Shown here: positions 8,137-37,001 of the stretch, piece by piece | How positions within the stretch are numbered: the stretch's first letter is position 1 | Layout: each line of letters opens with the position of its first letter | Position numbers and translations under genes: made by a program | Virus record (IMG/VR): IMGVR_UViG_3300033153_005557 | Location: 1 to 55,111 of that record | Source: a virus | Taxonomy: Duplodnaviria > Caudoviricetes | Direction: 5' to 3' (one strand) | Length of the DNA stretch: 55,111 nt | The notes under the pieces: model-generated | Seen by the model: the letters and a program-made list of their open reading frames with translations, nothing else | The model's database searches: none | Told to the model about the DNA's origin: nothing

Positions 8137-11100
8137 TTATTTTCCTTTGTCTGAGCCCATCTTATCATACGTTCTGCTTACGTCTAAGCCGAGACCAGCC
8201 TTCATGGAGCCGGTAACGACGTTTGCTTCGCCTTCGAGTACGTCAAAGACGTTTCTTGCTTGTATTGGCAGTGTTTGTAATACTTGGTAGACCATGTATG
8301 ATGGCCACTCTGCGGGACCTAACGGTCCTCTTCGGTTGCTCTCCCACGTATACAGGCCCTTTTGGCCGATCTGGGTTATCGGGGTGGGTCGTTTTTGGTC
8401 GAACCGTGTGCCCGCTACCAGGTCTACAACCGGTTTTGCCACGGCGGATGACTTATGGTACATCATTTTTACCGGGCTGGAGATCATTTTTGCCGGGTCA
8501 AGGAAGTGACCGAGCGTGTTCAGATAGTGATCTGTCTGCTGTGAGCCGCCTAGAATGTGGATTGCGGGTGATATATCGGCTTTCAGTGCGTTAAATTTAC
8601 CCCTTTTTACCGCCTTCTTGTACCGTTCCATCAGATCATCGTCGTCAAGACCGGCCATTGCGAAGTTTATCAACGTAGCCAGTATCAATGACCGCCCGAT
8701 GATACGGAGCCAGAACATCTTATATATCTCCTGTTCCATATCAGACCCGGAAAAAGCGGTACCAACGCCAGAGAAGCCCACCCCCGGCTTCTTATACAGT
8801 TTTAATACGGATATGACGTTCGATGCCGTCCAGTCAGGACCCAAGAGTAACAGACGCATCGTGTCTTGTGCCGTCTTGCTGGCTCCCAGCCGATCTGTGT
8901 TTAGGCCGCCAAAGTCGGCATTCGCCATTCCGGCTACTGCACGATAGATATTGGCCTCTGTCTCCGAAAAATACGATTCCTCGTTGATCTCGGCCTTACC
9001 AAAGGCGGAGTTGTACGTGATATGGTGCGGAGCTAGCGCCGGTGGTGTTGCATTCTTCGATGCTTGCTTCTCTTCGAGAATCTTCTCGCCATGCTTAATT
9101 AACAGTGCCTGTGCCTCGTTAAAAGCCGTTGCGGTCTTTAGTGACGACCCAAACACACCGAACATCTCGCCTTGGAGGCGTTGTGTAAGGTCTGACATAC
9201 GTGATATCAGCAGATTTGCTTGTTTTGTTGGGACGTTTCGTAGCTCACCAGCAGTGAATTTCTCCAATCCCGTCTTGAATTGTAGATTCTTGATACCAAC
9301 GTCCTGTACCTGGAACGCGGTCATGCCGTAATGCACGAGAGCGTGGAATTGTCTGGAGTTCCCCAGAATCGCGTCCAGTCCAAGTTGCCGACGTGAGCCG
9401 TAATCCAGCCGTGTCTTCAACTTACCCAGAAAATCGCCTCTTCCGGTGAAATCGTCCAGCTTCCACTCCGTGCCAGGAGCCGCACGACCGCCGATCATAG
9501 CGGACCATAACAATCCTCGTCTGTGAAACATGCCCCAGGCGATCTTGATGAGCTTCAGTTTCGCGTTAAACGCCATCAGAGACAGCCCAAACTGCGTTCT
9601 ACGGAATGTAGATGTCTTTGTGATGCGATTTACGAAATCCGCGATCTCTGTCGGAGCGTAGACATCACGGAATTGTGGGCGGATATCACCGCCTTTGGCC
9701 TTCTGTACTGATACTGCGTCCTCGAAGGTGGCTAGATTAGCCGCTAGGACCTTCCCGTTGGGACCGACCACCTGTAGGGTCATAAGTTTGCTTCCGGCGG
9801 CCTCAAGAAGCTTAAACCCCCCGTCAGGCCCCAATTTAAAGAAGCCTGACGATATATTGCTGTCTATCATATGCTGGTTTGCCAGAACATTTGCGACGTC
9901 CTGGTTGCCTGCTATGTAGTTTGCGAAGAAATCCGGGAACTTTAGTATTCTGCCATCCGCTAAATGTGGAGCTAAGGTCTCGAATTTACGACCCAATAAC
10001 CTCCCTGTAACCACCTTGAATACGTTCTCGGGCGTCTCACCCTCTTCTGCCGCCTTTCCCTCGGTAAATACGCGTGGAGAGTAGAACTGTTCTTGCTGGC
10101 CTGCGAATCGTGAGCCAGAGGCAATCAGATTCCAGTTCTCGTCCGCCATATTGGAATACTCGTTCTCGATGAAGTGACGTATCTTCCCGCCAAACTCGCC
10201 CTCGCCAAGCACAATTTCGCTTGATAACGGCATAACAGACAAATACCGCTTATATTCTGCCAGCTTGAAGTTTTCTTCGTTCGTTAGTGAAGATTTCGCC
10301 TCCAGTGCCTTTATGGTGTTTCTGACCGCTATCCCCTGTCTCGACAGTGTCTCGACTGCATTCTCCGTATTCATAGCGTCAACAGCGAAATGCATCGCCA
10401 ACGAGTATTGTGCAGCGGTATTACGGATGCCCATGTCGCGTTTGGCAATATTCTTCAATATCGTCCGAAGTTTAAACTCCGGTTGGATGCCGAATATCTC
10501 CATAAACGCCGTATGCAGCTTCAGACCGTCCGTTTGTACTTTCATGTTCCGTACATCACGCAAGGCGAATGACTGCTCCTGGAACTCTACAAGCCGCATT
10601 GCCAGTGCGGTACGGATGGATGCGTCCTTCAGGGCTTGGTTTCGCACATTCTTGTTGTAATGGTCGATTGATTTCTGTAGCCGTGATGCTTCTGCTACCA
10701 GTGCTTCTCCTTCCGGGTCGGCTGTTAAATATTCATCTAACAAAGCCGCACGTTCAGCGGATACAATACTCTGTGGGTCTGTGATATCACGGATAATATT
10801 CTGTACCGTCGCTAATGCATCGGCTTTTGCACCTAATGTCTTTGATGACAATGCCTCGTCTACCATAGCCGCAAGTGCGGCTTTTACGTCCTGTGGGCTG
10901 GAATCAGCGACGTTCTCCGCGGCAGCACCTTCTATGCCAGCCAGGTCAATCCGGCTCATGAGATTATAGCTCTCCATCACCTTATTCAGTATAAACCCGA
11001 TCTCTCGGGCGATATCCTCGCCCTTGCTTTGCAGCAATGGCCCTACAAGCCCACTGACGTTCTTTTCACCCTTAAAGTTGATCGCTCGTGCTACAGTTGC

Positions 11101-14100
11101 CATCGGGGATGCTGCTACACCACGATCTCCGCCTACCCTGTCGGACTTGCCAGCCATACCGCGAATCTCTGGTGCGGTCAGATTGGCGGTAAGAATCTCT
11201 GATAGATACCGTAACGTCTCTCTGGCGGCGTTCTGGGCCGTTAAATCCGTAGAGATGGTTACGGGAGCAGAACCGGGTTTTGTAATCAGGTCAGACGTCA
11301 CAGGTAGGTTCTCGCCCTCAATGAGCGGAATACCCAACCGTTGTGCGTTTTCTGCTTCAAGTTGGCCTGCGGTCTCTGATGTACCTAATTCTGACAGCAA
11401 CACGGAAGAACCGTCATCCGGCAGTCCTTTGGAGATGAAAAACTGCACGATGTCATCTGCTGTTATGCGTGCGTCAACGGCCACATCGAATGAGGTGTCG
11501 GCTACTGTCACTGGAACCGTGCTGTCTGATTGTGTAAATAACGCGAATAACGATGCTGCTGCGACGCGTTTGCGTAATTTCGGAGATACACTCTTATACA
11601 GTGTGCCGTCGATAAGTTGTGTATTGATTTCTTCCAGATTCTTGATCGCGGAAGCTAGATCGGTGTCTGCCTTCAAATGATGTGCTTCTGCCGTTATCGC
11701 CCACATTGGTCCAAACAGCTTTGTCAGGTCGTTAAGGCGGCGTATATCGCTGGATGATTGGAGATCAAATTCTAGATTACCAACCCGCAATACGGTTGTT
11801 TCACCGTCAATACCGTGTGTTGACCGGTTTTGGTCTGAAGGTAGGTCCAATGCACGGAATATATCGACGTATGCCGCCTCAGACAACGGGAGGTATACAT
11901 CCTCGAATCTCTGTTCGCTTAATTGTCCGATGCGTCGTATTGATTTTATTGTAGGACCGACCACTCTGGCACCAATCGGCTGTACTGAACCCGTCGTAGA
12001 TGCCGCTTTTGCTTGGAATTCTTCTCTTGATAACGCTTCTTCGGTGTTAATATCGTCATTTTCAGAACCGATCTCGCGCGCAGCATCTACTTTTGCCTTA
12101 TCACGCATTACTCCCGCGTCAGTATTCATCTGCCGGACACCACCGAGGACCTCGTCAAACCGACCTGACGGTATCAACTCCTTGGCTAATGCCTCAAAGT
12201 CCGCTCTTGTCGCAATAACACGCGGGTCTCCGGCCTTGATATCCAATAATCTTAATGCACCCTTAGACGCGTTAGTCAGTAATTGCTGCAAGCGTGCTTC
12301 CTTGGCTTCGCTCCATGTTGCCGTGACATCACGCTTTGCCCAATTAGATGCAAAGTCATTTAGAATACGCCTTGCCCGCTTTGACCGGCTGGTTTCCTTA
12401 ATTACCGGGTCACGGGATATCTGTCTTGCGACTGCACGTAGTCCTGTTTTACCGCCTACAAGCCCGCCAATGGCGTTTATCGCACCAACGTGCTTACTAA
12501 CCTCGGCAAACTCTGGAATCGGTTTATTGTTTAGTTTGGCAACCACAACGCCAGTGAGAAATCTCTGTAATGCAATCTGCTCGGAATCAGCCATATCGAA
12601 CTTACCGGCGTACAAAGCTATATATTCAGTGATTCTATGCCGTAGCTCTTGTACTTTTGTGTCATGCTGCTCTTTCGCGTCTACCGTCTCAATACGCAGG
12701 CGTATATTATCAGATGCCTTAACGGACGGAAACAACGGCTGGCTGACCGGGCCTTGTGGCCCCTCACCCTTTATTGAAGGTTGTGCGTCCTGTGTGGCCG
12801 CTGTGGGCGTCTTAATCGTTTTACCTATCCTAGACAGGAATCCACGCTTCTTGGCAGCAGCGGAAGCCCTAGGGCCTCTAACCAACCTCTCTGCCGCAGC
12901 GAATACGTTACGAAACGTCGCACGTACCGGCTGTTGCCTCTGTTCCTGCTGGAATTCTTCGAATGCTTCTGCGGGAGCCTCTTGCACATCAGAGTCTGCT
13001 ACATTGAACATATCCAATACCGCATCCCGAGATTCTCCCTCCATCTGTTGTATAACGGCATGGACAACTTCATGACCCAATGTAGAGCCCTGATAAGTGT
13101 TTATGGCAATAATGTTCTGATTCAGTCCCTTTTCTTCGAGTTGTAACCATAATTCTTCACTAACACCTACGCTTTTAGCACCTGACGGACTCTGATGGAA
13201 CTGGGCGGCTACGGCCTCTCCCGCTGACCCTGTCAGAGTATCCGACTTAACAACAGCGATCTTCTGACCGTTTATCGTCATTGTCAGTGCCTGGCCGGGT
13301 ACGAACTCTTCTATGTTAACGCTGCCGCCATGATCTATCATAATGGCCTGTAGCGGGTTATTTCGGAGATTAGCGACCGCATTCTCTATTGCAGTCGCGT
13401 TTATGTTTGCTCTCTCTTTCAGTGTTAAGTCTCTACCACCATTGACCTTACGTAGCTTCTCTTCCTCAGTGATAGATTCCATAACAACATGACGTGCGAC
13501 GAAATCCAGTGATTCATTACTGAATTCCGGTATATCTGCTCGGAGTTGACGTTTTACTTGATTAATGAAATCTGCGGTCTTTAAGCGGGTATTAAGCCCA
13601 CGAACCGCCATTGCACCACCGATAAGCCCTTCAAGAAAGAATCCGGCAACAAAGGCGTCACCCATCTGTCCGAGTACTTCATCCATGTTTACCGTACCAT
13701 CTATATTGCGGGGAAGTATCCCCTCTAACCCCTCTACTTGCAGTGTGCCTTCTGTCAGAGCCATCTGCATACCTTCTTGCAACCACTCCTCAACACCACC
13801 AACAAACGCCTCTGTAGCTCCGGCCCTGAATAACTGTGTTAGTGCCTGCATACGGGAAGTGTCGCTAAACACCTCTTTCAGTATTTTGCTCATCCCAAGA
13901 GTGTTTACCTTGCCGGTGCTACCCGCTCGTGCGATATCGTCAAGTCTGGTGGAACCACGCCCGATTGCGGTACGAAGAAGCTTTAAACGCTCCGCTCTGC
14001 TCGCAGAACCAACCAGTCCTCGCAATCCAGGTACCGCTCTTGCTGTTTTAACCAGTGCCGTACCGGTGAATATTTCTACCGCACCCAGGGCTGCACCGCC

Positions 14101-14952
14101 GAGAATGGACATATCACGTGCAAGTGACTGTTCCACACCTGCCCGTCTAAGGTCATAGAACATATCAGTGCCCATATGAGAGCCGATGACACCCGCACTA
14201 AGAGCGGGGCCAACGACCGGTACCATAGCCGCTAAAAGAGCGGCACTCATTGTAGGAGCGTTAGCCGCAACCAGGTTAATAAACCCGTCTATTGGTCCGT
14301 CTGGTTCGTGGTACCCAATAAGCTGTGCTGCTTCTTGATAGGCCATGCCGGTAGCCTCACCTTGGAGACCCAGCCTTGCGGGACCAGCAAGCAGTTCTAT
14401 GCCCTGTGCTGCGGAGTTAAAGATCGACCGTAGGTGTCCATACTCTATCTTATTCTGTATATCCTTGCTCTGGGCGTTAAGTCCCTTGATAATGTCTTCT
14501 ATAATCTGGCCCTCTTGCTGGCGGTTCTGTTTTGCTGATACAACCGCGGCACCCTCTGTAAACGCCTTTTTGGCCTTCAAGGAGTATTTTGGGTCCTTCC
14601 ATACCTTCTCTAGCGAGGCATCGTACGTCTTTATGTTCTTTGGAAGCAGTTTACCAGGAATCGCCTGCACACTACCGTGTTGTTCGGCAAGGAACGGTTC
14701 TGCGATATCCAGGCCCTTCTGTATCTGTGTGTCATAGAACTCATCTTCCGTGACTGGTTGTGCGAACTTAGCCCGTCTTACCTGTTCTGCGTTGCTTACC
14801 GTCCGGTTATTGAAGTCTATCTGTGAGAAGCGGTTCTTCTCCTGTGCCGTCAACTCGGCTACAGTCAGATCGGAGTCAACGCTTTCAAGCCCGCGTTCTA
14901 TCGTAGCGGTGTCTTTACTGGTGGTCGCACCGAGAGGTCTATTCTTCGCCAT
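8137..14952 (-). CDS. Large internal virion/ejection protein (2271 aa) with zincin-like HExxH motif
   Basis: Position at the end of a podovirus-type module, Ala/Gly-rich TM-like segments, and HEVVH...EAPAEAF. Confidence 0.75.
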   Translation of the reverse strand: MAKNRPLGATTSKDTATIERGLESVDSDLTVAELTAQEKNRFSQIDFNNRTVSNAEQVRRAKFAQPVTEDEFYDTQIQKGLDIAEPFLAEQHGSVQAIPGKLLPKNIKTYDASLEKVWKDPKYSLKAKKAFTEGAAVVSAKQNRQQEGQIIEDIIKGLNAQSKDIQNKIEYGHLRSIFNSAAQGIELLAGPARLGLQGEATGMAYQEAAQLIGYHEPDGPIDGFINLVAANAPTMSAALLAAMVPVVGPALSAGVIGSHMGTDMFYDLRRAGVEQSLARDMSILGGAALGAVEIFTGTALVKTARAVPGLRGLVGSASRAERLKLLRTAIGRGSTRLDDIARAGSTGKVNTLGMSKILKEVFSDTSRMQALTQLFRAGATEAFVGGVEEWLQEGMQMALTEGTLQVEGLEGILPRNIDGTVNMDEVLGQMGDAFVAGFFLEGLIGGAMAVRGLNTRLKTADFINQVKRQLRADIPEFSNESLDFVARHVVMESITEEEKLRKVNGGRDLTLKERANINATAIENAVANLRNNPLQAIMIDHGGSVNIEEFVPGQALTMTINGQKIAVVKSDTLTGSAGEAVAAQFHQSPSGAKSVGVSEELWLQLEEKGLNQNIIAINTYQGSTLGHEVVHAVIQQMEGESRDAVLDMFNVADSDVQEAPAEAFEEFQQEQRQQPVRATFRNVFAAAERLVRGPRASAAAKKRGFLSRIGKTIKTPTAATQDAQPSIKGEGPQGPVSQPLFPSVKASDNIRLRIETVDAKEQHDTKVQELRHRITEYIALYAGKFDMADSEQIALQRFLTGVVVAKLNNKPIPEFAEVSKHVGAINAIGGLVGGKTGLRAVARQISRDPVIKETSRSKRARRILNDFASNWAKRDVTATWSEAKEARLQQLLTNASKGALRLLDIKAGDPRVIATRADFEALAKELIPSGRFDEVLGGVRQMNTDAGVMRDKAKVDAAREIGSENDDINTEEALSREEFQAKAASTTGSVQPIGARVVGPTIKSIRRIGQLSEQRFEDVYLPLSEAAYVDIFRALDLPSDQNRSTHGIDGETTVLRVGNLEFDLQSSSDIRRLNDLTKLFGPMWAITAEAHHLKADTDLASAIKNLEEINTQLIDGTLYKSVSPKLRKRVAAASLFALFTQSDSTVPVTVADTSFDVAVDARITADDIVQFFISKGLPDDGSSVLLSELGTSETAGQLEAENAQRLGIPLIEGENLPVTSDLITKPGSAPVTISTDLTAQNAARETLRYLSEILTANLTAPEIRGMAGKSDRVGGDRGVAASPMATVARAINFKGEKNVSGLVGPLLQSKGEDIAREIGFILNKVMESYNLMSRIDLAGIEGAAAENVADSSPQDVKAALAAMVDEALSSKTLGAKADALATVQNIIRDITDPQSIVSAERAALLDEYLTADPEGEALVAEASRLQKSIDHYNKNVRNQALKDASIRTALAMRLVEFQEQSFALRDVRNMKVQTDGLKLHTAFMEIFGIQPEFKLRTILKNIAKRDMGIRNTAAQYSLAMHFAVDAMNTENAVETLSRQGIAVRNTIKALEAKSSLTNEENFKLAEYKRYLSVMPLSSEIVLGEGEFGGKIRHFIENEYSNMADENWNLIASGSRFAGQQEQFYSPRVFTEGKAAEEGETPENVFKVVTGRLLGRKFETLAPHLADGRILKFPDFFANYIAGNQDVANVLANQHMIDSNISSGFFKLGPDGGFKLLEAAGSKLMTLQVVGPNGKVLAANLATFEDAVSVQKAKGGDIRPQFRDVYAPTEIADFVNRITKTSTFRRTQFGLSLMAFNAKLKLIKIAWGMFHRRGLLWSAMIGGRAAPGTEWKLDDFTGRGDFLGKLKTRLDYGSRRQLGLDAILGNSRQFHALVHYGMTAFQVQDVGIKNLQFKTGLEKFTAGELRNVPTKQANLLISRMSDLTQRLQGEMFGVFGSSLKTATAFNEAQALLIKHGEKILEEKQASKNATPPALAPHHITYNSAFGKAEINEESYFSETEANIYRAVAGMANADFGGLNTDRLGASKTAQDTMRLLLLGPDWTASNVISVLKLYKKPGVGFSGVGTAFSGSDMEQEIYKMFWLRIIGRSLILATLINFAMAGLDDDDLMERYKKAVKRGKFNALKADISPAIHILGGSQQTDHYLNTLGHFLDPAKMISSPVKMMYHKSSAVAKPVVDLVAGTRFDQKRPTPITQIGQKGLYTWESNRRGPLGPAEWPSYMVYQVLQTLPIQARNVFDVLEGEANVVTGSMKAGLGLDVSRTYDKMGSDKGK

Positions 14953-29212: not shown

Positions 29213-31408
29213 TTACTTCCCTTTCGTTTCTGGTTTCTTTGCTTCAAAATTCATTTTCTTAAGAACTAATTGTCGCTCCGTTGTTCCTTTTATCATCATC
29301 TGTGCTTCCAGTTCCTTAACAAATGCTGCTTGCTGGGCCTGCTGGACTAGCTGTTGGTGCTCTATTATATGCATATTGAACCGATTTAGCAACTCTAAAT
29401 GTAAAGGATTGCCAGAAGACCGGAATTTCCAGAAGTTATCTATCATGTAATTGTTGTGCACCATAATATGTATCATATGGTCATCGAAGGCGTTTATATG
29501 CGGTATAAAGAGATATCCCTCGATTAGCTTTGCCGTCTCTTCGGACGATAATCCTTCCGGAATATTTATATCTTTTAAATTCTCTGTGGCGGAAACAAAC
29601 TCCTTCATGGCGAAGTTTTTCTGTTTTGAGTGCTTTTGGAGTAACATATCGTTGTTCCCGAGATGCATCTGTTCCATCACCCATGTCCGGAGTTCTGGGT
29701 CGTTCGGGTCACCAAGCAGACCAGATTGCCATATCTGGAACGTCTGTGCCTTTTCCTTCTCCTTATCCAGCGGCAGCGAAGAGCCCCTGCGTACGATAAC
29801 GTTGAATTTGCCCTGTAGCTGTTTCTTGTCCAGTTCAAAGATTGTCCATTCGTAGTCCGTACCAACGACATTCAGCATCTTACCGTTCGGATAGTTTGTC
29901 AGTGCAAGTGATAATGCCTGATAGGCAACACGTTCGTCTGCTTCTTCGAAGGCCGCAACAATCGGACCAAGATGCTTTATGTCCGCAGTCTCTAGTTGTG
30001 CCAGTGCCTTTCCACTCTCGATTCCCTTGGGTGCAACACCCTGTGATGGTTCGTGGAATGCGAATATGCCGTCAATAGCACGCTTTGTGTCTGCTATGTA
30101 CGCAAACACCTGGCTGTTCATCGGTATTCCAGGCTCTCGTGTGGGCTTACCAACCGGACCGTCATACTCGATTATGTTACCAGCATGGTTGTCCAGCGTC
30201 TTGTACCGCAGTTTTGCTTGCCTAGGAGCCATTATGATCGCGTTGCCCATGACATCTATGTTTTCCTTGGCCTGGCTTCTTAGTTCATTGTACTCTCTTT
30301 GCAATGGCCGCGCTTGTGATATACGGCTTATAGCACCGTTCATGGCGTCTATGATTGACAATGGAGCTACCGGAACAAACGGAAGCTCTCCATGTGGATA
30401 CTGTTCTATTGGGTACGGGCTATGGGCCACCACTTGCGTACCAAGCATTACGGCAAAGACACCTGTTGGCATTGTCTTTGTCGGCTTCTCCCAGTATTCA
30501 TAATAATCAATATTCTTATCTGATTCTAACAACACCTGATGTGACTCTGGTTGTTTCGGTGTTACTGTCTGGTTGGTATTACCACCACTGAAATATGTGT
30601 TACCGAAGCGACTCCATATCCTTGCCTCAAACGAGTCCTCGCCATTCTGGCGTCCGGTAGAGAATTGTGTCTTGAGTTTGCTATAGACCTCTGTACCAAA
30701 TCTATCTACAACCCAGTTAGCGTTTACACGCTTTCCTTGTATCATCCAGTTATGTTTTGTTGGGTCTGTTTGCCTGAAGTCGTATATTAAATGGTTTGCA
30801 GGTACAGAATCTACCTGAACCTCGCCTTCCATTATTGCTTCACCTACCGGAATTTCCGCTATATGTGACGGATTCGCAGAGCCATCCTCGTTTACCGGTG
30901 CAGGATTCACCCCCAATACAGAGAAGTTTGGGTCCCAGTATACCTTTCTCCAGCCAATCCCGGCTATGTCATACCACAGTACCGCGTCAGCACGCTTGAA
31001 GCCCCCACCAATGCGTCTTCCCAGATACTTGAGTATCTTGGTACCGGCAATAGCTGTGGCCTTGTCGTCCGCGTCAGAGCCTGCTGGGACAACATCGAAG
31101 ACGGGAGCCGTACCGGTGGCTACTGCTATGTCCTTCTGAACAGCAGGGAGAATGACGTTCGCAACACTCTCTACGACACGCTCCTTGTTGAGCGGAAGAA
31201 TTGCGTCACCAACAAGCCGGATGTTCTGTTCCCCGACCAGATAGGAGATATTTGCCATTATTTCCGTGCGTATTCGCCTCCGGTGTGGATTAAATGTCTC
31301 CATCCGCTTTACCATTATTTTGCCGATATTCTGACTCTGTTCGTCGGTTAGTACGAACTGAGCAGTATTCTGCATCGTGCCGTCTGTGTTTTTCCTGTCT
31401 TCACTCAA
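29213..31408 (-). CDS. Portal protein
   Basis: GIGWRKVYWD, YPHGELPFV, PLQREYN and SGKAL motifs. TTG start with AAAGGAG RBS. Confidence 0.88.
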   Translation of the reverse strand: MSEDRKNTDGTMQNTAQFVLTDEQSQNIGKIMVKRMETFNPHRRRIRTEIMANISYLVGEQNIRLVGDAILPLNKERVVESVANVILPAVQKDIAVATGTAPVFDVVPAGSDADDKATAIAGTKILKYLGRRIGGGFKRADAVLWYDIAGIGWRKVYWDPNFSVLGVNPAPVNEDGSANPSHIAEIPVGEAIMEGEVQVDSVPANHLIYDFRQTDPTKHNWMIQGKRVNANWVVDRFGTEVYSKLKTQFSTGRQNGEDSFEARIWSRFGNTYFSGGNTNQTVTPKQPESHQVLLESDKNIDYYEYWEKPTKTMPTGVFAVMLGTQVVAHSPYPIEQYPHGELPFVPVAPLSIIDAMNGAISRISQARPLQREYNELRSQAKENIDVMGNAIIMAPRQAKLRYKTLDNHAGNIIEYDGPVGKPTREPGIPMNSQVFAYIADTKRAIDGIFAFHEPSQGVAPKGIESGKALAQLETADIKHLGPIVAAFEEADERVAYQALSLALTNYPNGKMLNVVGTDYEWTIFELDKKQLQGKFNVIVRRGSSLPLDKEKEKAQTFQIWQSGLLGDPNDPELRTWVMEQMHLGNNDMLLQKHSKQKNFAMKEFVSATENLKDINIPEGLSSEETAKLIEGYLFIPHINAFDDHMIHIMVHNNYMIDNFWKFRSSGNPLHLELLNRFNMHIIEHQQLVQQAQQAAFVKELEAQMMIKGTTERQLVLKKMNFEAKKPETKGK

Positions 31409-31649
31409 GGTTAATTCTCCTTTCAATCCCGTTCTCAACCGATACGAGATATCTGTTTTTACATTCCATGCAAGAAACTATCGCCTGCGACGCTAAAACG
31501 GTCATTCCTTTGTGTTTTATCACCACAAAGTCGCCATGCTCTGCAACCGCAGACACCTTGCACAACTTTCTATAACACTCTGGGCAACGATACACCCTAG
31601 AAGCTGTTATCTTACAGGATGATATCTTTGTCTGCGTCGTTGTTGTCAT
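31401..31649 (-). CDS. Zn-ribbon protein (Mu Com-like)
   Basis: RCPECYRKL...SCMECK. Confidence 0.55.
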   Translation of the reverse strand: MTTTTQTKISSCKITASRVYRCPECYRKLCKVSAVAEHGDFVVIKHKGMTVLASQAIVSCMECKNRYLVSVENGIERRINLE

Positions 31650-31872
31650 TTTCGTCCTCTTGTGCGTCTGGGTCGCCGTATCCAGCGATTATTAGTTCTA
31701 TTTTAGCCATATCCGGTATTAAATGCTGATGCTTATACTTCAACATCATCCAGCAGTTATGGAAAAAGTTATCTCTCCGCAACATCTCGTCGTTGGTTGG
31801 CGGTGCCTGCCTTAATGCTGTTTCAATAGCAGTATCCACGTTTACCTCTGTGTCTTTTCTGAAATTAAACAT
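31612..31872 (-). CDS. Hypothetical protein
   Basis: AGGAG RBS. Confidence 0.6.
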   Translation of the reverse strand: MFNFRKDTEVNVDTAIETALRQAPPTNDEMLRRDNFFHNCWMMLKYKHQHLIPDMAKIELIIAGYGDPDAQEDENDNNDADKDIIL

Positions 31873-31880
31873 TGTTTCTC

Positions 31881-32594
31881 CTATAAAATTACGCCTTGCT
31901 TGTTACTTCTGGCTGTTGCTAGTTGCTGCCTGAACTGTCTCCAGGCCTTTGTCGCTTCCGGAGCGATCTTCTTTTTCTGTATCTTTGCCGCTTCTGGCCG
32001 TATAAAAGGGTATAAACGAGCACCATGATAGGCCAACATAAGAGCCATAACAGTATCATCGTTAAATCCATCTGCCCCACCCGCTTTCTTCTTGCTCGAC
32101 TGGTACACGAAATTCAGGAACTCTGAGATCGTTACGGTGTCGTTAATCCGTATCTCGTTGTTCGCCAGTGCTAATTGTGTCTCGTTTATCAGCATCCACT
32201 TTGTCGCTTCTGTTGTACGGAAACCGTACTTACATGATATGTCAATGTCCTCGTCAAGATGAGACTCTGCCTGGTAATTACGTGGGTAATGGTAGTAAGA
32301 CAGCAATGCGTCTTGTACGGAGTTACCTGGATAGTTGACCTCGCATACCATTAATGCCTCGTTGTACCACCTGCCAAGGCGATCTACGAACTTGCTGACT
32401 TCGTTCACCGGCCACTTAGCACGGAAAACAGCGACCTGCTCATACGGAATCGTGTTAGAGATCACTTGGGCACACGAATAGTCATCAGCGAGACCGGTAG
32501 AAGCATCAATTCCAAGCGTGTATACCATGCCCATTTCTGGAGCACGGAATAGTTTCAGGGGTCCCATTTCTTGTTCCAAGAAACTATACAACAT
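31881..32594 (-). CDS. terL: Terminase large subunit, nuclease (RNase H-like) domain encoded as a separate gene
   Basis: GIDASTG..DDYS, CEVNYPG, YGFRTT, DDTVMALMLA. Confidence 0.88.
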   Translation of the reverse strand: MLYSFLEQEMGPLKLFRAPEMGMVYTLGIDASTGLADDYSCAQVISNTIPYEQVAVFRAKWPVNEVSKFVDRLGRWYNEALMVCEVNYPGNSVQDALLSYYHYPRNYQAESHLDEDIDISCKYGFRTTEATKWMLINETQLALANNEIRINDTVTISEFLNFVYQSSKKKAGGADGFNDDTVMALMLAYHGARLYPFIRPEAAKIQKKKIAPEATKAWRQFRQQLATARSNKQGVIL

Positions 32595-32946
32595 GTGTCC
32601 CTTCTACGCCTCTTTGCTCGCGTTCAGTAGTTCTGTGGTTTAAGTGTCCCAATGCTTCCTCTAGTTTTGCTAATGCCAGTGCATTGTCTTTACATCGGTA
32701 TTCACTACACTGAAAGCACTTGAGACGGTCAATAACAATAACAAGAAGGTCTTCATTCATTACACCATTAACTCCATGCTCTTTGATTGGGCCATTTTGG
32801 AAACAAATTCTTGTGTCCATTTTTGCAATGTCTCCGGCACGGTCAATAGAATGCACCTCATAAATATGGTTTGCATGGCCGTGTCCCGCCTTATCCATTG
32901 CACTTACCTTTGTGTATTTTTTTGTTCCAATATTTAGTTCTCTCAT
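32584..32946 (-). CDS. tad1: Tad1-family anti-Thoeris/anti-CBASS nucleotide sponge
   Basis: Pattern MRE..G.G.A.H.Y...FQ.G..KE..NGV...DLL.IV.DRLK.FQ...Y....NA.AL...EEAL..LN.R...R..R.V.GT matches the Tad1 sequence as I recall it, along the full length. Confidence 0.82.
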   Translation of the reverse strand: MRELNIGTKKYTKVSAMDKAGHGHANHIYEVHSIDRAGDIAKMDTRICFQNGPIKEHGVNGVMNEDLLVIVIDRLKCFQCSEYRCKDNALALAKLEEALGHLNHRTTEREQRGVEGTHVV

Positions 32947-32962
32947 TTTGCTTTCCTTTCTT

Positions 32963-34876
32963 CTATGCGACCGCTAGTATACCTTCTGTGTACGTTCCAG
33001 CCGCTTCTTCCATTGCAGCCAGTATCTTACGGTTAAACACCGGTCTGCCACCAAACTGTATATACGAGCCTTCTACACGCACCAGACGCTCGTCTTCCGG
33101 TAAGGTCTTACACAGCTTATCAATTTCATTCATCGGTATATACGGGTTTTCCCGCATACCAGCCATTGTATAAAACACTTCTTCTCTGTCCAGTATGTCT
33201 TTCAGCCACTTTGTTCCTTCTACCGGAGTGGCGGTCATCAGCCACGGTGCCTGTTTATCCAACATTCTTAGCTCCAGTTCACGGAAGACGCCTTCCTTTA
33301 GCGGCTCTTCGTCAACCCATGCAAAGTCAATCGCGTCTCCCTGGAACTTGGCACGACCGGATTCTACCGATTTGTACCATACTTCCCATTCTCTACCGTC
33401 TGCCTTCAGTGTCCAGTATTGATGCTTTCCGTTCCATTTACCGTTCTCCATATACCTCTTTGGCATATGTCCCTCGAAGTAGGGCTTCTCTACGCCTTCG
33501 AGAACCTTGCTGTCAGGCCCCACAATCCACGCACGGCCATTCTTAGGGCTCTTATACGTCGGGTGCTGCCCAGTCACTATTAAAGCGGTAATAAAACCAC
33601 CAAGATGGCTGTTGCAGGTTGCTACGAAGTCACCAACAAGGAAACAATGGTCTGGATGGTCGATTTCGATGCAGTAGCACTGGTGCTTTCCGGTAGGTTC
33701 TATCGAACGAACAATGCGACTCGTATAATCACAGTTCCTTTTTGTTCTTTCTGGCATCTTATATTTCAACTCTACTGGAATATCGTATGCTCGCCATGTG
33801 ACATTATGGTATGTACCCTTTTTTGGGCCATCTTTAGCATTTGTACACGTTTTCTCTACTACTTGTATAGTTGCTTTTCCTCCAAGGCTACGCACTAGTT
33901 TTTGAAAACCATCCGCTAGCATCGGAGATTTCACACAGAAGCCAAATTTGAATCCGTCAGTGTCGATTAAGCCTGCCAGTAACTGCTTTCTGTCTTCTAT
34001 TGAGGCGGAAAGGTATATCTCTGGGATAAATTTTGTCCCGGACTTAGTGCCCATTAGTCCTAACTTATCGAGTTTATCCGCCAACCCTTCGGCTTTAATC
34101 AATCCGTGAGATATGGACTTTGTTCGTCTTGATATCAAAGCTAATCCATCCAGGTTCTCTTTTAAGCGGTTGATTATTGTTTCGTCTTTTGAGGTTACCG
34201 CTAATGAGTTTTTATTAACAATCGACCCGTCACCAAGCAGCACTCCCAGTACATATGGATGTACCGGCAAAGTGATTGATGGTAGATATTCTACCGACAC
34301 AGGACTCAACATTCGTGTCCGTAGCGATATAGCATTGCCTAGTCGTGGCCTAAGCTCATCAATAGTCCTCTTAACAACCTTAATCGGTTCCTTGCGGCCT
34401 CTTGGTCGTGAGATATATTTCCCGCTACGTAGTTTCACCGGAAATGGGTGTGTACCGGCCGTTTCAACCGATGCACCGTCGCTAAATGTTATTTTATAAC
34501 AATCAAGCATCCCATTGTCCCATTTATTTGTTACTATTACGGGCTTTGCTTCTCCACTTTTAATATCATAACTCAGCACATAGTCGCCGATTGCGATGTC
34601 TCGCATTGTTTTATACGAACCGTCGGCCATTGGAACTACCTGGGTCTCAGTTAATTCCTTACCAATTCTGTTCGCTCCGCATGCTACGCAGCCCTTATAC
34701 TTCGGCATGTTCCATATTATCTCGTACTGCCAACTCGGTGACCCGTCCGACCGATTCCGGTATGGGACCATCTTGTAATAGGGCTCTTTCGCGCGTTGCA
34801 AAGTCTCCTTTATTATCTTCTGATTCCCCTGCAACCACCTCAAGGCCTCTTTCCCCTTGGACGTATGACTCGACAT
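32963..34876 (-). CDS. terL: Terminase large subunit, ATPase domain, intein-containing
   Basis: Walker A GANRIGK/S interrupted by the intein, Walker B FAWVDEE, TATP and ENPYI motifs. Likely start is ATG 34876 with a GAGGA RBS (ORF track starts at 34981). Confidence 0.88.
   Translation of the reverse strand: MSSHTSKGKEALRWLQGNQKIIKETLQRAKEPYYKMVPYRNRSDGSPSWQYEIIWNMPKYKGCVACGANRIGKELTETQVVPMADGSYKTMRDIAIGDYVLSYDIKSGEAKPVIVTNKWDNGMLDCYKITFSDGASVETAGTHPFPVKLRSGKYISRPRGRKEPIKVVKRTIDELRPRLGNAISLRTRMLSPVSVEYLPSITLPVHPYVLGVLLGDGSIVNKNSLAVTSKDETIINRLKENLDGLALISRRTKSISHGLIKAEGLADKLDKLGLMGTKSGTKFIPEIYLSASIEDRKQLLAGLIDTDGFKFGFCVKSPMLADGFQKLVRSLGGKATIQVVEKTCTNAKDGPKKGTYHNVTWRAYDIPVELKYKMPERTKRNCDYTSRIVRSIEPTGKHQCYCIEIDHPDHCFLVGDFVATCNSHLGGFITALIVTGQHPTYKSPKNGRAWIVGPDSKVLEGVEKPYFEGHMPKRYMENGKWNGKHQYWTLKADGREWEVWYKSVESGRAKFQGDAIDFAWVDEEPLKEGVFRELELRMLDKQAPWLMTATPVEGTKWLKDILDREEVFYTMAGMRENPYIPMNEIDKLCKTLPEDERLVRVEGSYIQFGGRPVFNRKILAAMEEAAGTYTEGILAVA
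33611..34657 (-). mobile_element. Intein (349 aa) with LAGLIDADG homing endonuclease
   Basis: ELTETQVVPMADG...DIAIGDYV, CYKITFSDG...THPF, LGVLLGDGS and LAGLIDTDG motifs, ending CYCIEID...ATCN/S. Removal restores GANRIGKS. Confidence 0.9.
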
Positions 34877-35324
34877 GGCGGCGTCCTCTCTGAGCCTTGT
34901 CAATTTGTTCAAAGAGCTCTGCATCCGATGATATGGAAACTGTAAGCGTAGTATCTTTTTTTGTTGCGGCGTAAACTCCATAGATTTTATGTACCTCTTG
35001 TATTGCCTTTAATTGCGTTGGCCGGTCCGGCACGCTGGTTATCGACGTACTTCCGTCTGCATTCTCTGTAACAATCGGCTTTGTTGCGTCTAATGCCTTG
35101 ATAAGCTTGCTTGTAGTACCCGTTAGGCCCTTCAGTTTGCTATTGTCAAGGTGTGCTATCGCCATCATACGGAAATCATCGGAGCTCTTGTACGTGTGTA
35201 TCGTCTTCCTTGACACACCAAGCTCTTTGGCACACTCACCGATGCTCTTGTGATCAATGATATGCGATTTAAGCAACTTTATCTTATTTTTTGTTGATCG
35301 TTCCTTTTTTTCGCTGTCCTTCAT
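34695..35324 (-). CDS. terS: Terminase small subunit (HTH)
   Basis: HTH ECAKELGVSRKTI, ALDATK...PD..TQLKA. Immediately upstream of TerL. Confidence 0.7.
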   Translation of the reverse strand: MKDSEKKERSTKNKIKLLKSHIIDHKSIGECAKELGVSRKTIHTYKSSDDFRMMAIAHLDNSKLKGLTGTTSKLIKALDATKPIVTENADGSTSITSVPDRPTQLKAIQEVHKIYGVYAATKKDTTLTVSISSDAELFEQIDKAQRGRRHVESYVQGERGLEVVAGESEDNKGDFATRERALLQDGPIPESVGRVTELAVRDNMEHAEV

Positions 35325-35778
35325 TAGTAACCTTTTTTGTTATATACAACTTTTCGGTTTTTGTGCCGTCCAGATCGTCTGTCACGGAAGAAACGATATG
35401 TTTCTGGGCAAGATGCAGCTTCATCCCGTGTTCGGTAAAAGTCTTTCCGCATTTCTCACATGGAAAACGCTCACCACCGGGTTTTATACCCGGCTTCTTA
35501 TGTCGTCCACGCTTCTTTCCCGCGACCTGTGGCTTTCTTGGGTGTTCACCGAACTTGATGTCCGTCTTGCCTTCTACCGTGATCTGCCTTCCAAGGGTTA
35601 TCCGGACAATACACTCGTTACAGATACCCGTGTCCTTCTTTTCCGGAGCGGTATGCCTGACAAGAAGACCGTCTGCTCGTCTACCACAGACAGAACAGTT
35701 CTGTTTCTTACTGCATCGCTCGTATATTCTTGCCTTGTATAGTACTCTTTCGGTCTTGATTCTTACTAATACTGACAT
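35284..35778 (-). CDS. Basic protein with C4 and C2H2 zinc fingers
   Basis: CSVC...CNEC, KKRGRHKKP, FPCEKCGKTF...LHLAQKH. Confidence 0.7.
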   Translation of the reverse strand: MSVLVRIKTERVLYKARIYERCSKKQNCSVCGRRADGLLVRHTAPEKKDTGICNECIVRITLGRQITVEGKTDIKFGEHPRKPQVAGKKRGRHKKPGIKPGGERFPCEKCGKTFTEHGMKLHLAQKHIVSSVTDDLDGTKTEKLYITKKVTNEGQRKKGTINKK

Positions 35779-35794
35779 AGTTTATTCCTTTCTA

Positions 35795-36295
35795 TTACCA
35801 CGGACGGGCGTATACCTTGACTCGGCCTGTTGCCCCGGCCTGTGTTATTGTTACTACCTGGATAACAATGTACTTAAACCCTCTTGTATCGAATGAAGCC
35901 GTACCACAGTAGCCCGCTGCATCATTATTGGCTATCGTGTATGCACCAGCAGAATCGACAACAAAGCTTTCTGCACAAAAATAACCATCGTCATCTACTT
36001 GTGCTCCGCCAGCTATTGTACTTAGCGTGTCTACAAGCACAGCAGGGCCGTTTTCTGCATACCCCCATACAGCTATTTTGACGTTTACCTCTGCATCAAG
36101 TAACATACTAACTCGGAGTTCAAGCCCGTTGGTATGATCGTTAAGCTGTAATACATCTTGTGTGGCGGCAACAGATGCTGCTTTTCTGAACGCTTCCGTT
36201 CTCTGCGTGGCGGCAACTAATATAGTTTCTACGTTCGCCTTAAGGACGTTCCTTATTAGCTTCCACGGTGCCTGTTTTGTGTTAAGGTAACTCAT
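35795..36295 (-). CDS. Putative virion beta-sandwich protein
   Basis: Beta-rich composition and location in the late operon. Confidence 0.5.
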   Translation of the reverse strand: MSYLNTKQAPWKLIRNVLKANVETILVAATQRTEAFRKAASVAATQDVLQLNDHTNGLELRVSMLLDAEVNVKIAVWGYAENGPAVLVDTLSTIAGGAQVDDDGYFCAESFVVDSAGAYTIANNDAAGYCGTASFDTRGFKYIVIQVVTITQAGATGRVKVYARPW

Positions 36296-36296
36296 A

Positions 36297-37001
36297 TTAT
36301 TCCTTTCCTTCTAGTTCACTTAATTTTGCTTTAATCATTAAAATTTCATTCGTGAAGTATGCAATCTCACTCGGAGCGATACCTGGAGGCCCTTCTTTAC
36401 CTCTGGCTCCTGGGTACCCTCGCTCACCGAGTAATCCATTCTTTCCATCTGTACCGTTCCTGCCATCTGCTCCAGCAGGACCGAGAAGGTCTCTAGCTTC
36501 GCCCTGAGAGCCGTCGGGGTTCTCGAAGGTTATTTTGGTGCCATCCCATATATGGACCGGTACAGAGCCAGCCAGGCCATCTACACCATCTACGCCATTG
36601 ATTCCATCCTTGCCGTCTTTTCCGTCTTTACCTCGATGTCCGTCAAGGCCGTTTGCACCGTCGATGCCGTCTGCTCCATCGAGCCCGTTTATATAATCTT
36701 TCCCAGGGACCGGTGTGTAACCATCTTTACCGTCAACGCCGTCAATGCCGTCTCTATAATCTTCTCCCTTTTTGGGAGTGTATCCGTCTTTTCCGTCCTT
36801 ACCATCCGTTCCGTTGGCACCAGAGGGGCCCTGTGAGCCTGTGTCGCCCTTATCGCCCTTTGCCATCATTTCGATTGGCTCTTTAGAGTTACCGAAATAC
36901 ATCCTTCCTTTACGAAACACCATTTTTGACATTAATTCTTTTGCAAGCATCTGTTCTTTTGTGGCTTTTTGGTCGCCAGTGAATCTGTCTCGTGAGCCCA
37001 T
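36297..37001 (-). CDS. Collagen-like (Gly-X-Y) protein
   Basis: GKDGKDG/GADGIDG repeats with YTPxKGxDY linkers. Confidence 0.85.
   Translation of the reverse strand: MGSRDRFTGDQKATKEQMLAKELMSKMVFRKGRMYFGNSKEPIEMMAKGDKGDTGSQGPSGANGTDGKDGKDGYTPKKGEDYRDGIDGVDGKDGYTPVPGKDYINGLDGADGIDGANGLDGHRGKDGKDGKDGINGVDGVDGLAGSVPVHIWDGTKITFENPDGSQGEARDLLGPAGADGRNGTDGKNGLLGERGYPGARGKEGPPGIAPSEIAYFTNEILMIKAKLSELEGKE

Follow-up and report, generated by a model that had tools for sequence, protein, structure and literature searches.

The DNA examined here is the virus record IMGVR_UViG_3300033153_005557, analysed over its whole length of 55,111 bp (the window). It is a complete phage genome with direct terminal repeats, the exact repeat being 114 bp, and its minus strand carries all the long open reading frames (ORFs). 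On that strand a packaging cluster runs in the order TerS-like ORF, three ORFs at the junction of the large terminase (TerL) and portal gene. The junction is our subject. The ATPase and nuclease halves of TerL are encoded by separate ORFs, and the gene between them, of 120 amino acids (aa), belongs by homology to the Tad1 family of signal sponges. The ATPase ORF, the 120-aa ORF and the nuclease ORF occupy three different frames, and the junction is made up as follows.

32963..34981, minus strand: gene of the TerL ATPase chain, a 672-aa precursor including an intein; it ends ...TYTEGILAVA, with the TAG at 32963-32965
34658..34981, minus strand: N-extein, residues 1-108; its last residues, GANRIGK, are the first part of Walker A (from alignment with relatives)
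33611..34657, minus strand: 349-aa intein (residues 109-457) carrying a LAGLIDADG homing-endonuclease domain (from alignment with intein-less relatives)
32966..33610, minus strand: C-extein, residues 458-672; its first residue is the Walker A Ser, and it contains Walker B (DFAWVDEEP), the TATP C-motif and the C-terminal tail
32947..32962, minus strand: spacer of 16 nucleotides (nt) with a Shine-Dalgarno-like AAGGAAAG before the Tad1 ATG
32584..32946, minus strand: gene of a 120-aa Tad1-family sponge, cargo of the TerL junction (from homology to solved Tad1)
32584..32594, minus strand: 11 nt (ATGTTGTATAG) shared by the 3' end of Tad1 and the 5' end of the nuclease ORF
31881..32594, minus strand: gene of the TerL nuclease chain, 237 aa, RNase H-like (from the profile match to gp17 nucleases and invariant catalytic residues)

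A first-pass annotation of this DNA had described an ATPase ORF ending in GILAVA-TAG, then a 120-aa gene with its own Shine-Dalgarno sequence, then a nuclease ORF overlapping that gene by 11 nt. The ORF list and the sequence bear out this layout, including AAGGAAAG in the 16-nt spacer. The ATPase start that it gave, 34876, needs revision. The start is most likely at 34981, because residues 1-35 of the longer ORF (MEFTPQQKKILRLQFPYHRMQ...) can be aligned to relatives' N-termini. The Walker A intein was absent from that annotation.

A large terminase encoded as two chains

Relatives of the locus were collected through the nuclease half on viral and metagenome contigs (loci numbered with the prefix L), and those with both halves were identified by tblastn of the C-extein and the nuclease half. 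Both halves are visible at 46 loci including the window, and clustering at 97% nuclease identity groups them into 32 lineages. The count excludes loci whose junction lies off the contig or that are only 24-35% identical (L008-L014, L028-L038, L042, L051, L055, L056, L058-L061, L065, L066, L069, L071, L076 and L078-L082). TerL is split in all 32 lineages, each with an ATPase stop and a new nuclease start, and is fused in none; the separate ORFs and this count support the first-pass proposal that TerL is encoded as two polypeptides, cut near the interdomain hinge. In 29 lineages no gene lies between the halves, and the distance from ATPase stop to nuclease start runs from -34 to +24 nt. These 29 distances fall in all three relative frames, the nuclease ORF restarts with ATG or GTG, and two of the in-frame junctions (L043 and L021) contain a second in-frame stop. 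The window's nearest sister, L048, is among the cargo-free lineages and has a 1-nt TAATG overlap; others are only 37-44% identical to the window. The ratio of nonsynonymous to synonymous substitution rates (dN/dS) was 0.063-0.137 in all ten unsaturated comparisons (five pairs, each with two halves), three further comparisons being saturated. Both TerL halves are under purifying selection. Because so many lineages are split with no intervening gene, the split is older than the insertion, and the sponge gene occupies a gap that was already there.

Single-chain enzymes appear among more distant relatives: L028-L033 have ORFs of 913 aa at 32% identity, and others have ORFs of 587-590 aa at 27-30%. 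The phage genome collection contained no close relative, its best nuclease matches being one-chain TerLs at most 33% identical. A profile search of genome contigs with the nuclease alignment returned 51 pattern matches, none of them a relative, and so gave neither a prophage copy nor a hint of the host. When 1.84 billion representatives were searched with the nuclease half, eight matches fell below 1e-30, seven of them 120-251 aa long. The eighth, P0008, is a fused TerL of 496 aa, truncated at its N-terminus, that continues without a break across the position of the cut, and it is either the ancestral one-chain form or a re-fusion. Several members of clade B, one of the two split clades in the nuclease-half tree, are one stop-codon change from fusion, because their halves are arranged as TAA, one codon and ATG. 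Of the 150 representatives that best match the nuclease half, about a quarter have fewer than 300 aa and match from near their N-terminus onwards; this may mean that separate nuclease chains, or gene calls cut short, are widespread in the T4-type terminases.

By profile match and motifs, the two halves belong to a T4-type TerL (Terminase_6N/Terminase_6C). PHROG families of terminase large subunits match the 672-aa protein, and a profile of 22 nuclease halves matches the gp17 nuclease domains of RB49 and T4 (3c6a, E 8e-15; 3ezk, E 1e-11). The window's own halves fall under the Pfam cut-offs, Terminase_6C reaching 19.2 against 22.6 (E 0.0013) and the ATPase being masked by the intein; the relative L005 matches Terminase_6N at 34 bits (cut-off 22). 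The profile of ATPase halves reached no solved structure by sequence. In the nuclease chain D30, E85 and D179/D180, which align with the acidic triad, are invariant among relatives. Alignments with intein-less relatives (ATPase ORFs of 309-324 aa) indicate that the ATPase chain keeps NRIGK-S, the W.DEEP Walker B region and TATP. The first-pass statement that both halves retain their catalytic motifs is thus right for the nuclease; for the ATPase it would hold only after protein splicing, because the intein interrupts Walker A.

The gp17 proteins of T4 and RB49 (3ezk, 3cpe and 3c6a) are the closest solved relatives of the window's nuclease half, and they share with the window TerL the logic of Walker A, Walker B and C-motif and the D/E/D nuclease triad. 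Position 14 of the nuclease profile aligns with T4 gp17 residue 385, so that the nuclease ORF begins near gp17 residue 372. PMC3074133 gives the gp17 hinge as residues 354-364, so the ATPase chain appears to keep the hinge and a little more. Whereas gp17 is one chain with a flexible hinge, the window chain ends about 8 residues past the hinge-equivalent position and a new gene begins. We propose that in the uncultured clade to which this phage belongs, two consecutive genes coupled in translation supply the large terminase as two chains, that the cut falls just downstream of the interdomain hinge, and that the ATPase chain would keep the hinge and a C-terminal tail of about 30 residues.

Because an intein interrupts the window's own ATPase chain, the complex of the two chains was modelled with the intein-free pair of L001, on alignments of 18 and 22 rows. 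The L001 ATPase/nuclease pair scored 0.84 and the best of three controls 0.00; of 80 solved complexes 58 attain the mark for this score, as do 2 of 110 mismatched pairs. Agreement between the runs covered at least 71% of contacts, partner pLDDT (predicted local distance difference test) was at least 76, and the modelled interface joins ATPase residues 292-322 to nuclease residues 1-15 and 135-174. In this model the ATPase tail clamps onto the nuclease chain. The chains therefore may associate through that tail, and the motor would be assembled non-covalently.

Three other accounts of the split have to be weighed against a clade-wide split that predates the sponge. The first-pass annotation implied that insertion of the sponge into a one-piece terL had created the two-subunit enzyme. 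That would explain why the sponge gene lies exactly between the halves in the window and why its composition looks foreign, with a GC content at third codon positions (GC3) of 0.33, but it is very improbable, given 29 lineages that are split without the gene, the distant ones and the nearest sister among them. The related claim that the gene was inserted at the domain linker is correct as to place, since the sponge does lie at the TerL split, and incorrect in what it implies about order, since the split was there before. The halves might also be rejoined into one chain by intron splicing, by frameshifting or readthrough, or by protein trans-splicing. Split terL genes elsewhere are often interrupted by introns, with group I introns described in Jug phages (PMC12880540) and in Twort (PMC13729910), and an intein is present in the same gene of the window. 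Rejoining is nevertheless hardly to be expected. Rfam, searched at E up to 1 over 31000-36000, gave no intron match, in line with the first-pass remark that intron-like sequence is absent, and a single chance-level match to an internal ribosome entry site on the other strand. A 363-nt ORF, from a stand-alone family that is well conserved, fills the 368-nt insert, and the intein, lying inside the ATPase chain, is no split intein placed at the junction. Moreover, cargo-free relatives stop and restart in every relative frame, some with two in-frame stops, and gaps so small and so varied in frame leave no room for an intron and no conserved recoding signal. Finally, the split could be decay in a defective phage or a misassembly, as the window is a single metagenome-derived record. 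This is exceedingly improbable: the genome is complete with terminal repeats, the same split recurs in 32 lineages on many independent contigs, dN/dS is about 0.1 in both halves and the catalytic residues are invariant. We favour the ancient, clade-wide split.

The Tad1 gene and the junction as a proposed cargo slot

The 120-aa protein is, by sequence, a Tad1 homologue. A phmmer search of PDB matched 8kbb, which PMC10680739 describes as apo CmTad1, at E 1.3e-26 over query residues 6-118, and 8kbg, 7uav and 8kbe at about 5e-15. The family phrog_2428 matches it at E 1.5e-40, and PF24729, the Acb2/Tad1 hairpin family, is the precomputed label of an identical protein and of all 120 homologues listed. 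Homology to CmTad1 (8KBB), CbTad1 (8KBE-H) and SBSphiJ7 Tad1 (7UAV) extends over the whole length, and the pocket for glycocyclic ADP-ribose (gcADPR) and cyclic GMP-AMP (cGAMP) is shared. The PDB and phrog_2428 matches agree with the first-pass description of the intervening gene as a signal-sponge anti-defence gene. In CbTad1, according to PMC10680739, mutation of F82, N92, R109 and R113 abolishes binding of gcADPR and 2',3'-cGAMP; all four are conserved in the HMMER alignment, as F78, N88, R105 and R109 of the window protein. From this we infer that Tad1 binds gcADPR and blunts Thoeris. It would most likely sequester TIR-made gcADPR, and possibly some cyclic dinucleotides, and would so blunt Thoeris-type and perhaps CBASS-type (cyclic-oligonucleotide-based antiphage signalling system) responses.

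A protein with the Tad1 fold might have another role, either mainly as a sponge for the cyclic dinucleotides of CBASS or as a structural or packaging accessory. The nucleotide spectra of Tad1 proteins differ, some binding cGAMPs in the gcADPR pocket (PMC10680739), and many homologues in Bacillus phages are annotated 'structural protein'. The window protein also departs from known Tad1 at two places. Residues of the CbTad1 cyclic-trinucleotide site are changed (R90 to K86 and T97 to A93), and four of the five mutated CmTad1 hexamer-interface residues differ (Q98E, M102G, W103H and K106H; E99 is kept), so the ligand range may differ. The cyclic-trinucleotide site and the hexamer interface are not required for Thoeris inhibition. 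We judge another role unlikely, because all four residues needed for gcADPR binding by CbTad1 are conserved, and because the two other cargo alleles found at the same junction resemble Tad2, the other known gcADPR sponge, which suggests a shared selective target. A sponge for gcADPR remains our reading of the gene.

At 0.33 the GC3 of Tad1 is lower than that of the TerL exteins, nuclease gene and portal gene (0.50-0.69), which fits recent import. Thirteen identical bases, GTAGAAGGGACAC, are found at the end of Tad1 (window 32587-32610, encoding V-E-G-T) and in the ATPase tail of L019 (3975-4004, encoding V-E-G-T-L). This identity between the 3' ends of the two genes is a possible recombination microhomology for the insertion; it may also be chance, because the same four residues are encoded in both.

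Since the Tad1 gene lies inside the terL operon and has its own ribosome-binding site, it would be expected to be co-transcribed with the late packaging genes. A GAAGGGA motif stands 5 nt before the nuclease ATG, within the 120-aa gene, and because the Tad1 stop overlaps the nuclease start, translation of the nuclease is probably coupled to that of Tad1; the geometry of the overlap fits the coupling that the first-pass annotation had proposed. A preprint (bioRxiv 10.64898/2026.06.04.730250) reports that late virion proteins, the side tail fibres, set sensitivity to type II Thoeris, which makes late co-expression of the sponge plausible.

The survey of relatives' junctions showed cargo in three of the 32 lineages: Tad1 in the window, an 89-aa gene in L001/L002 and a 74-aa gene in L003/L004, whose nuclease halves are 66% and 67% identical to that of the window. 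The cargo of both these other lineages is Tad2-like (PF11195 at 83.6 and 41.4 bits, cut-off 25; E 1.4e-23 and 2.1e-10), and that of L001 matches solved Tad2 at about 1e-25 (9eib and 8v3e). Identity between the two Tad2-like genes is only 24%, against 92% and 86% for their flanking TerL halves. Both share a leader (…TTAAGAAAGGCATAGGATT-ATG) and a TAATG overlap with the nuclease start, and the leader of the window's Tad1 shares the core AAGAAAGG with the Tad2-like leaders of L001 and L003. Junctions are empty in the nearest sisters of all three cargo lineages: L048 for the window, L043 for L001 and L046 for L003. The 9-nt spacers of L043 (3492-3500, GGATTATAA) and L046 (430-438, GGATTAGCA) begin with GGATTA, resembling the end of the Tad2 leader (GGATT-ATG), and may be deletion scars of cargo loss.

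Few lineages carry cargo, and that cargo is Tad1 or divergent Tad2-like genes, which points to the junction as a fast-turnover slot for signal-sponge genes. The short junction would tolerate insertions and serve as a cassette slot in a sub-clade, most relatives' junctions being empty. The first-pass suggestion that the arrangement enforces retention of the sponge does not hold over evolutionary time, as the sisters of every cargo lineage are empty and the cargo differs among close relatives. We found no Tad2 in the window, neither Tad1 nor Tad2 anywhere in the records of two complete cargo-free relatives, and neither in two incomplete relatives' records (41% and 55%); the 92%-complete record of L002 has its sole Tad2 at the junction and no Tad1. 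Among the best 80 of 360 other Tad1-bearing viral matches, none has Tad1 between terminase halves, a survey made with hidden Markov models that were built from this clade and may miss unrelated terminases beside Tad1. Three of those 80 loci (L129, L132 and L134, on unrelated Tad1 contigs) have a TerL nuclease-like ORF about 0.8 kb upstream of Tad1, one of them of about 580 aa and probably a one-chain TerL. Tad1 near packaging genes may be commoner than this clade alone suggests.

A more ambitious proposal would make the junction a dedicated anti-signalling cassette slot swapped by recombination. The sponge would be made together with the motor because packaging or other late virion proteins trip a host TIR (Thoeris-type) sensor, and the terL split would have been favoured partly for giving an insertion-tolerant, late, highly expressed and coupled site. 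We consider this proposal rather doubtful.

The first-pass annotation had also suggested that the split might alter immune recognition of TerL, which is a target of several bacterial sensors. PMC13601566 reports that the ATPase domain alone activates EcAvs2 and Upx, and that SeAvs3 also binds the folded nuclease. The split would thus not hide TerL from EcAvs2 or Upx, and could matter at most for Avs3-type sensors, which bind the folded nuclease as well.

The Walker A intein

A 349-aa insertion lies exactly between the K and S of Walker A (GANRIGK/S) and is absent there in intein-less relatives. It is present in 6 of the 27 lineages with the site visible (the window, L006, L019, L020, L021 and L044). 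The insertion gives weak LAGLIDADG_3, Hom_end and HINT matches, and tblastn of the ATPase against the phage collection mostly matched other intein-bearing proteins, phage helicases and terminases among them. Its GC3 is 0.40, compared with 0.52-0.69 in the exteins. We propose that an intein with a homing endonuclease invaded the Walker A loop of the ATPase gene independently of the split, and that it would have to splice out before the ATPase can work.

The intein begins with Glu109 and ends, in TCN, with Asn457, and Ser458 is the +1 residue; the first residues of relatives' inteins are I, P, P or C. Intein blocks were assigned by eye against the text of PMC2807308, which describes class 3 inteins as having no N-terminal nucleophile and a WCT triplet of Trp B:12, Cys F:4 and Thr G:5. 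Cys437, within C-I-x-x-D-x-x-x-H-x-F, corresponds with its pattern to Cys320, Ile321, Asp324, His328 and Phe330 of MP-Be, and Thr455 stands at G:5. The window's intein looks like class 3. With the class 3 P-loop inteins of MP-Be DnaB and mycobacteriophage TerL it shares the Lys/Ser-Thr site of Walker A, called the 'classic' P-loop insertion site in PMC5050341, as well as the lack of an N-terminal nucleophile, the block F pattern, Thr G:5, the terminal Asn and Ser +1; it differs in Phe at B:12 and in the penultimate Cys. The intein is predicted to splice. The Cys at F:4 is kept in all five aligned inteins, while the first residue varies (E, I, P, P and C). The L006 intein has Cys1 as well as the F:4 Cys and ends in GN instead of TCN, and could be a transition between intein classes.

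Known systems, the combined reading and neighbouring genes

Two-gene large terminases are already known. According to PMC11920828 the ATPase and nuclease domains lie in two genes in most cluster AY Arthrobacter phages, and in the BillyTP record (PP978841) genes 2 and 3, which overlap by 17 nt, encode an ATPase domain of 359 aa and a nuclease domain of 198 aa. As in the window, the two TerL genes are consecutive and overlapping, in viable, isolated phages in the case of cluster AY, and the cut falls just before the first catalytic-Asp strand. However, hhalign gave probabilities of 4.5% for the nuclease and 0.7% for the ATPase. With no detectable relationship beyond the fold, the cluster AY split appears to be an independent event, analogous and not homologous. 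No cargo gene and no intein were seen in the BillyTP record, unlike in the window. The Jug phages and Twort likewise have an essential packaging gene in pieces, in Jug with accessory genes between them, whereas the window has no intron and its protein pieces would stay separate. For a locus that exchanges signalling inhibitors, the nearest parallel is in the N4-like Migulavirinae, related phages that swap anti-signalling genes at a defined hotspot (bioRxiv 10.64898/2026.06.04.730250); the window's slot takes a single gene inside the terL operon and is no multi-gene island. The window thus combines known kinds, a two-gene TerL, an anti-defence hotspot and a P-loop intein, and its new element is the predicted anti-Thoeris cargo in the junction. 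A literature search, with supplements outside its reach, found no paper placing Tad1, Tad2 or another sponge between terL halves.

Taken as a whole, the locus is quite probably best explained as a member of a clade with a two-chain T4-type TerL, in which the junction serves as a cassette slot in a sub-clade, here filled by a Tad1 sponge, and from whose ATPase chain the Walker A intein would have to splice out. Several points tell against this explanation, beyond the Tad1 residue changes given above. The complex of the two chains was modelled on a relative, L001, that is 66-71% identical, and not on the window's own chains, and its score may reflect likeness to solved single-chain terminases of the gp17 type and not binding. 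In the nuclease-half tree the fused P0008 is placed next to clade B, one of the split clades, so the tree does not fix the number or direction of split and fusion events. With cargo in so few lineages, the slot rests on three alleles. A local Pfam scan of the Tad1 gene found no family even at E 10, despite the PF24729 label in the database. The stretch 31500-35600 has 5 promoter-like sites where 6.6 would be expected, and its 7 terminator-like sites lie without exception on the plus strand; neither kind is more frequent than in shuffled sequence, and co-transcription is thus an assumption. The intein has Phe at B:12 (H-P-F) and not Trp, and Cys replaces the penultimate His. If the intein cannot splice, the ATPase chain would be dead.

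TerL is usually treated as a one-chain universal marker of tailed phages, and gene callers and TerL-based phylogenies can miss or truncate split enzymes of this kind. An environmental clade with a two-chain TerL would be a natural test of ATPase-nuclease communication without a covalent hinge. With three sponge alleles and many empty sites among close relatives, the junction appears to be a small, sharply bounded swap locus for anti-defence genes, holding only signal sponges so far, and it could be mined in metagenomes for new small genes. The arrangement suggests that signal sponges can be wired into a late packaging operon, and that a split, a selfish intein and a beneficial cargo can be layered together on a single essential gene.

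Two further packaging genes flank the junction.

34695..35324, minus strand: TerS-like ORF, 209 aa, with an N-terminal helix-turn-helix (a weak match to the MerR type); it lies directly upstream of TerL, as in relatives
29213..31438, minus strand: portal protein gene (P22_portal, E 1.5e-13); the gene order is the same in relatives

Over 287 nt (34695-34981) the 3' part of the TerS-like ORF coincides, in another frame, with the start of the TerL ATPase ORF, an unusually long dual-coding stretch. Both frames look conserved: the TerS-like tail motif R-x-R-x-L-L-x-D and the TerL N-terminus LQFPYHRMQ are each kept in L001, L019 and L020. Between the nuclease and portal genes (31401-31872, minus strand) lie two small ORFs, of 86 aa and of 82 aa, the latter with a CxxC...CxxC zinc-ribbon pattern; relatives keep both at this position. 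A Pfam scan of ten other large ORFs found one lectin-like domain and nothing else; a 2271-aa ORF (8137-14952, minus strand) and several other large ORFs had no Pfam match at E 0.001, and the phage is without a close relative in culture. Upstream of the packaging genes (36297-37001, minus strand) is a gene for a 234-aa protein with long collagen-like G-x-y repeats, which is kept in L001 (538-1170).

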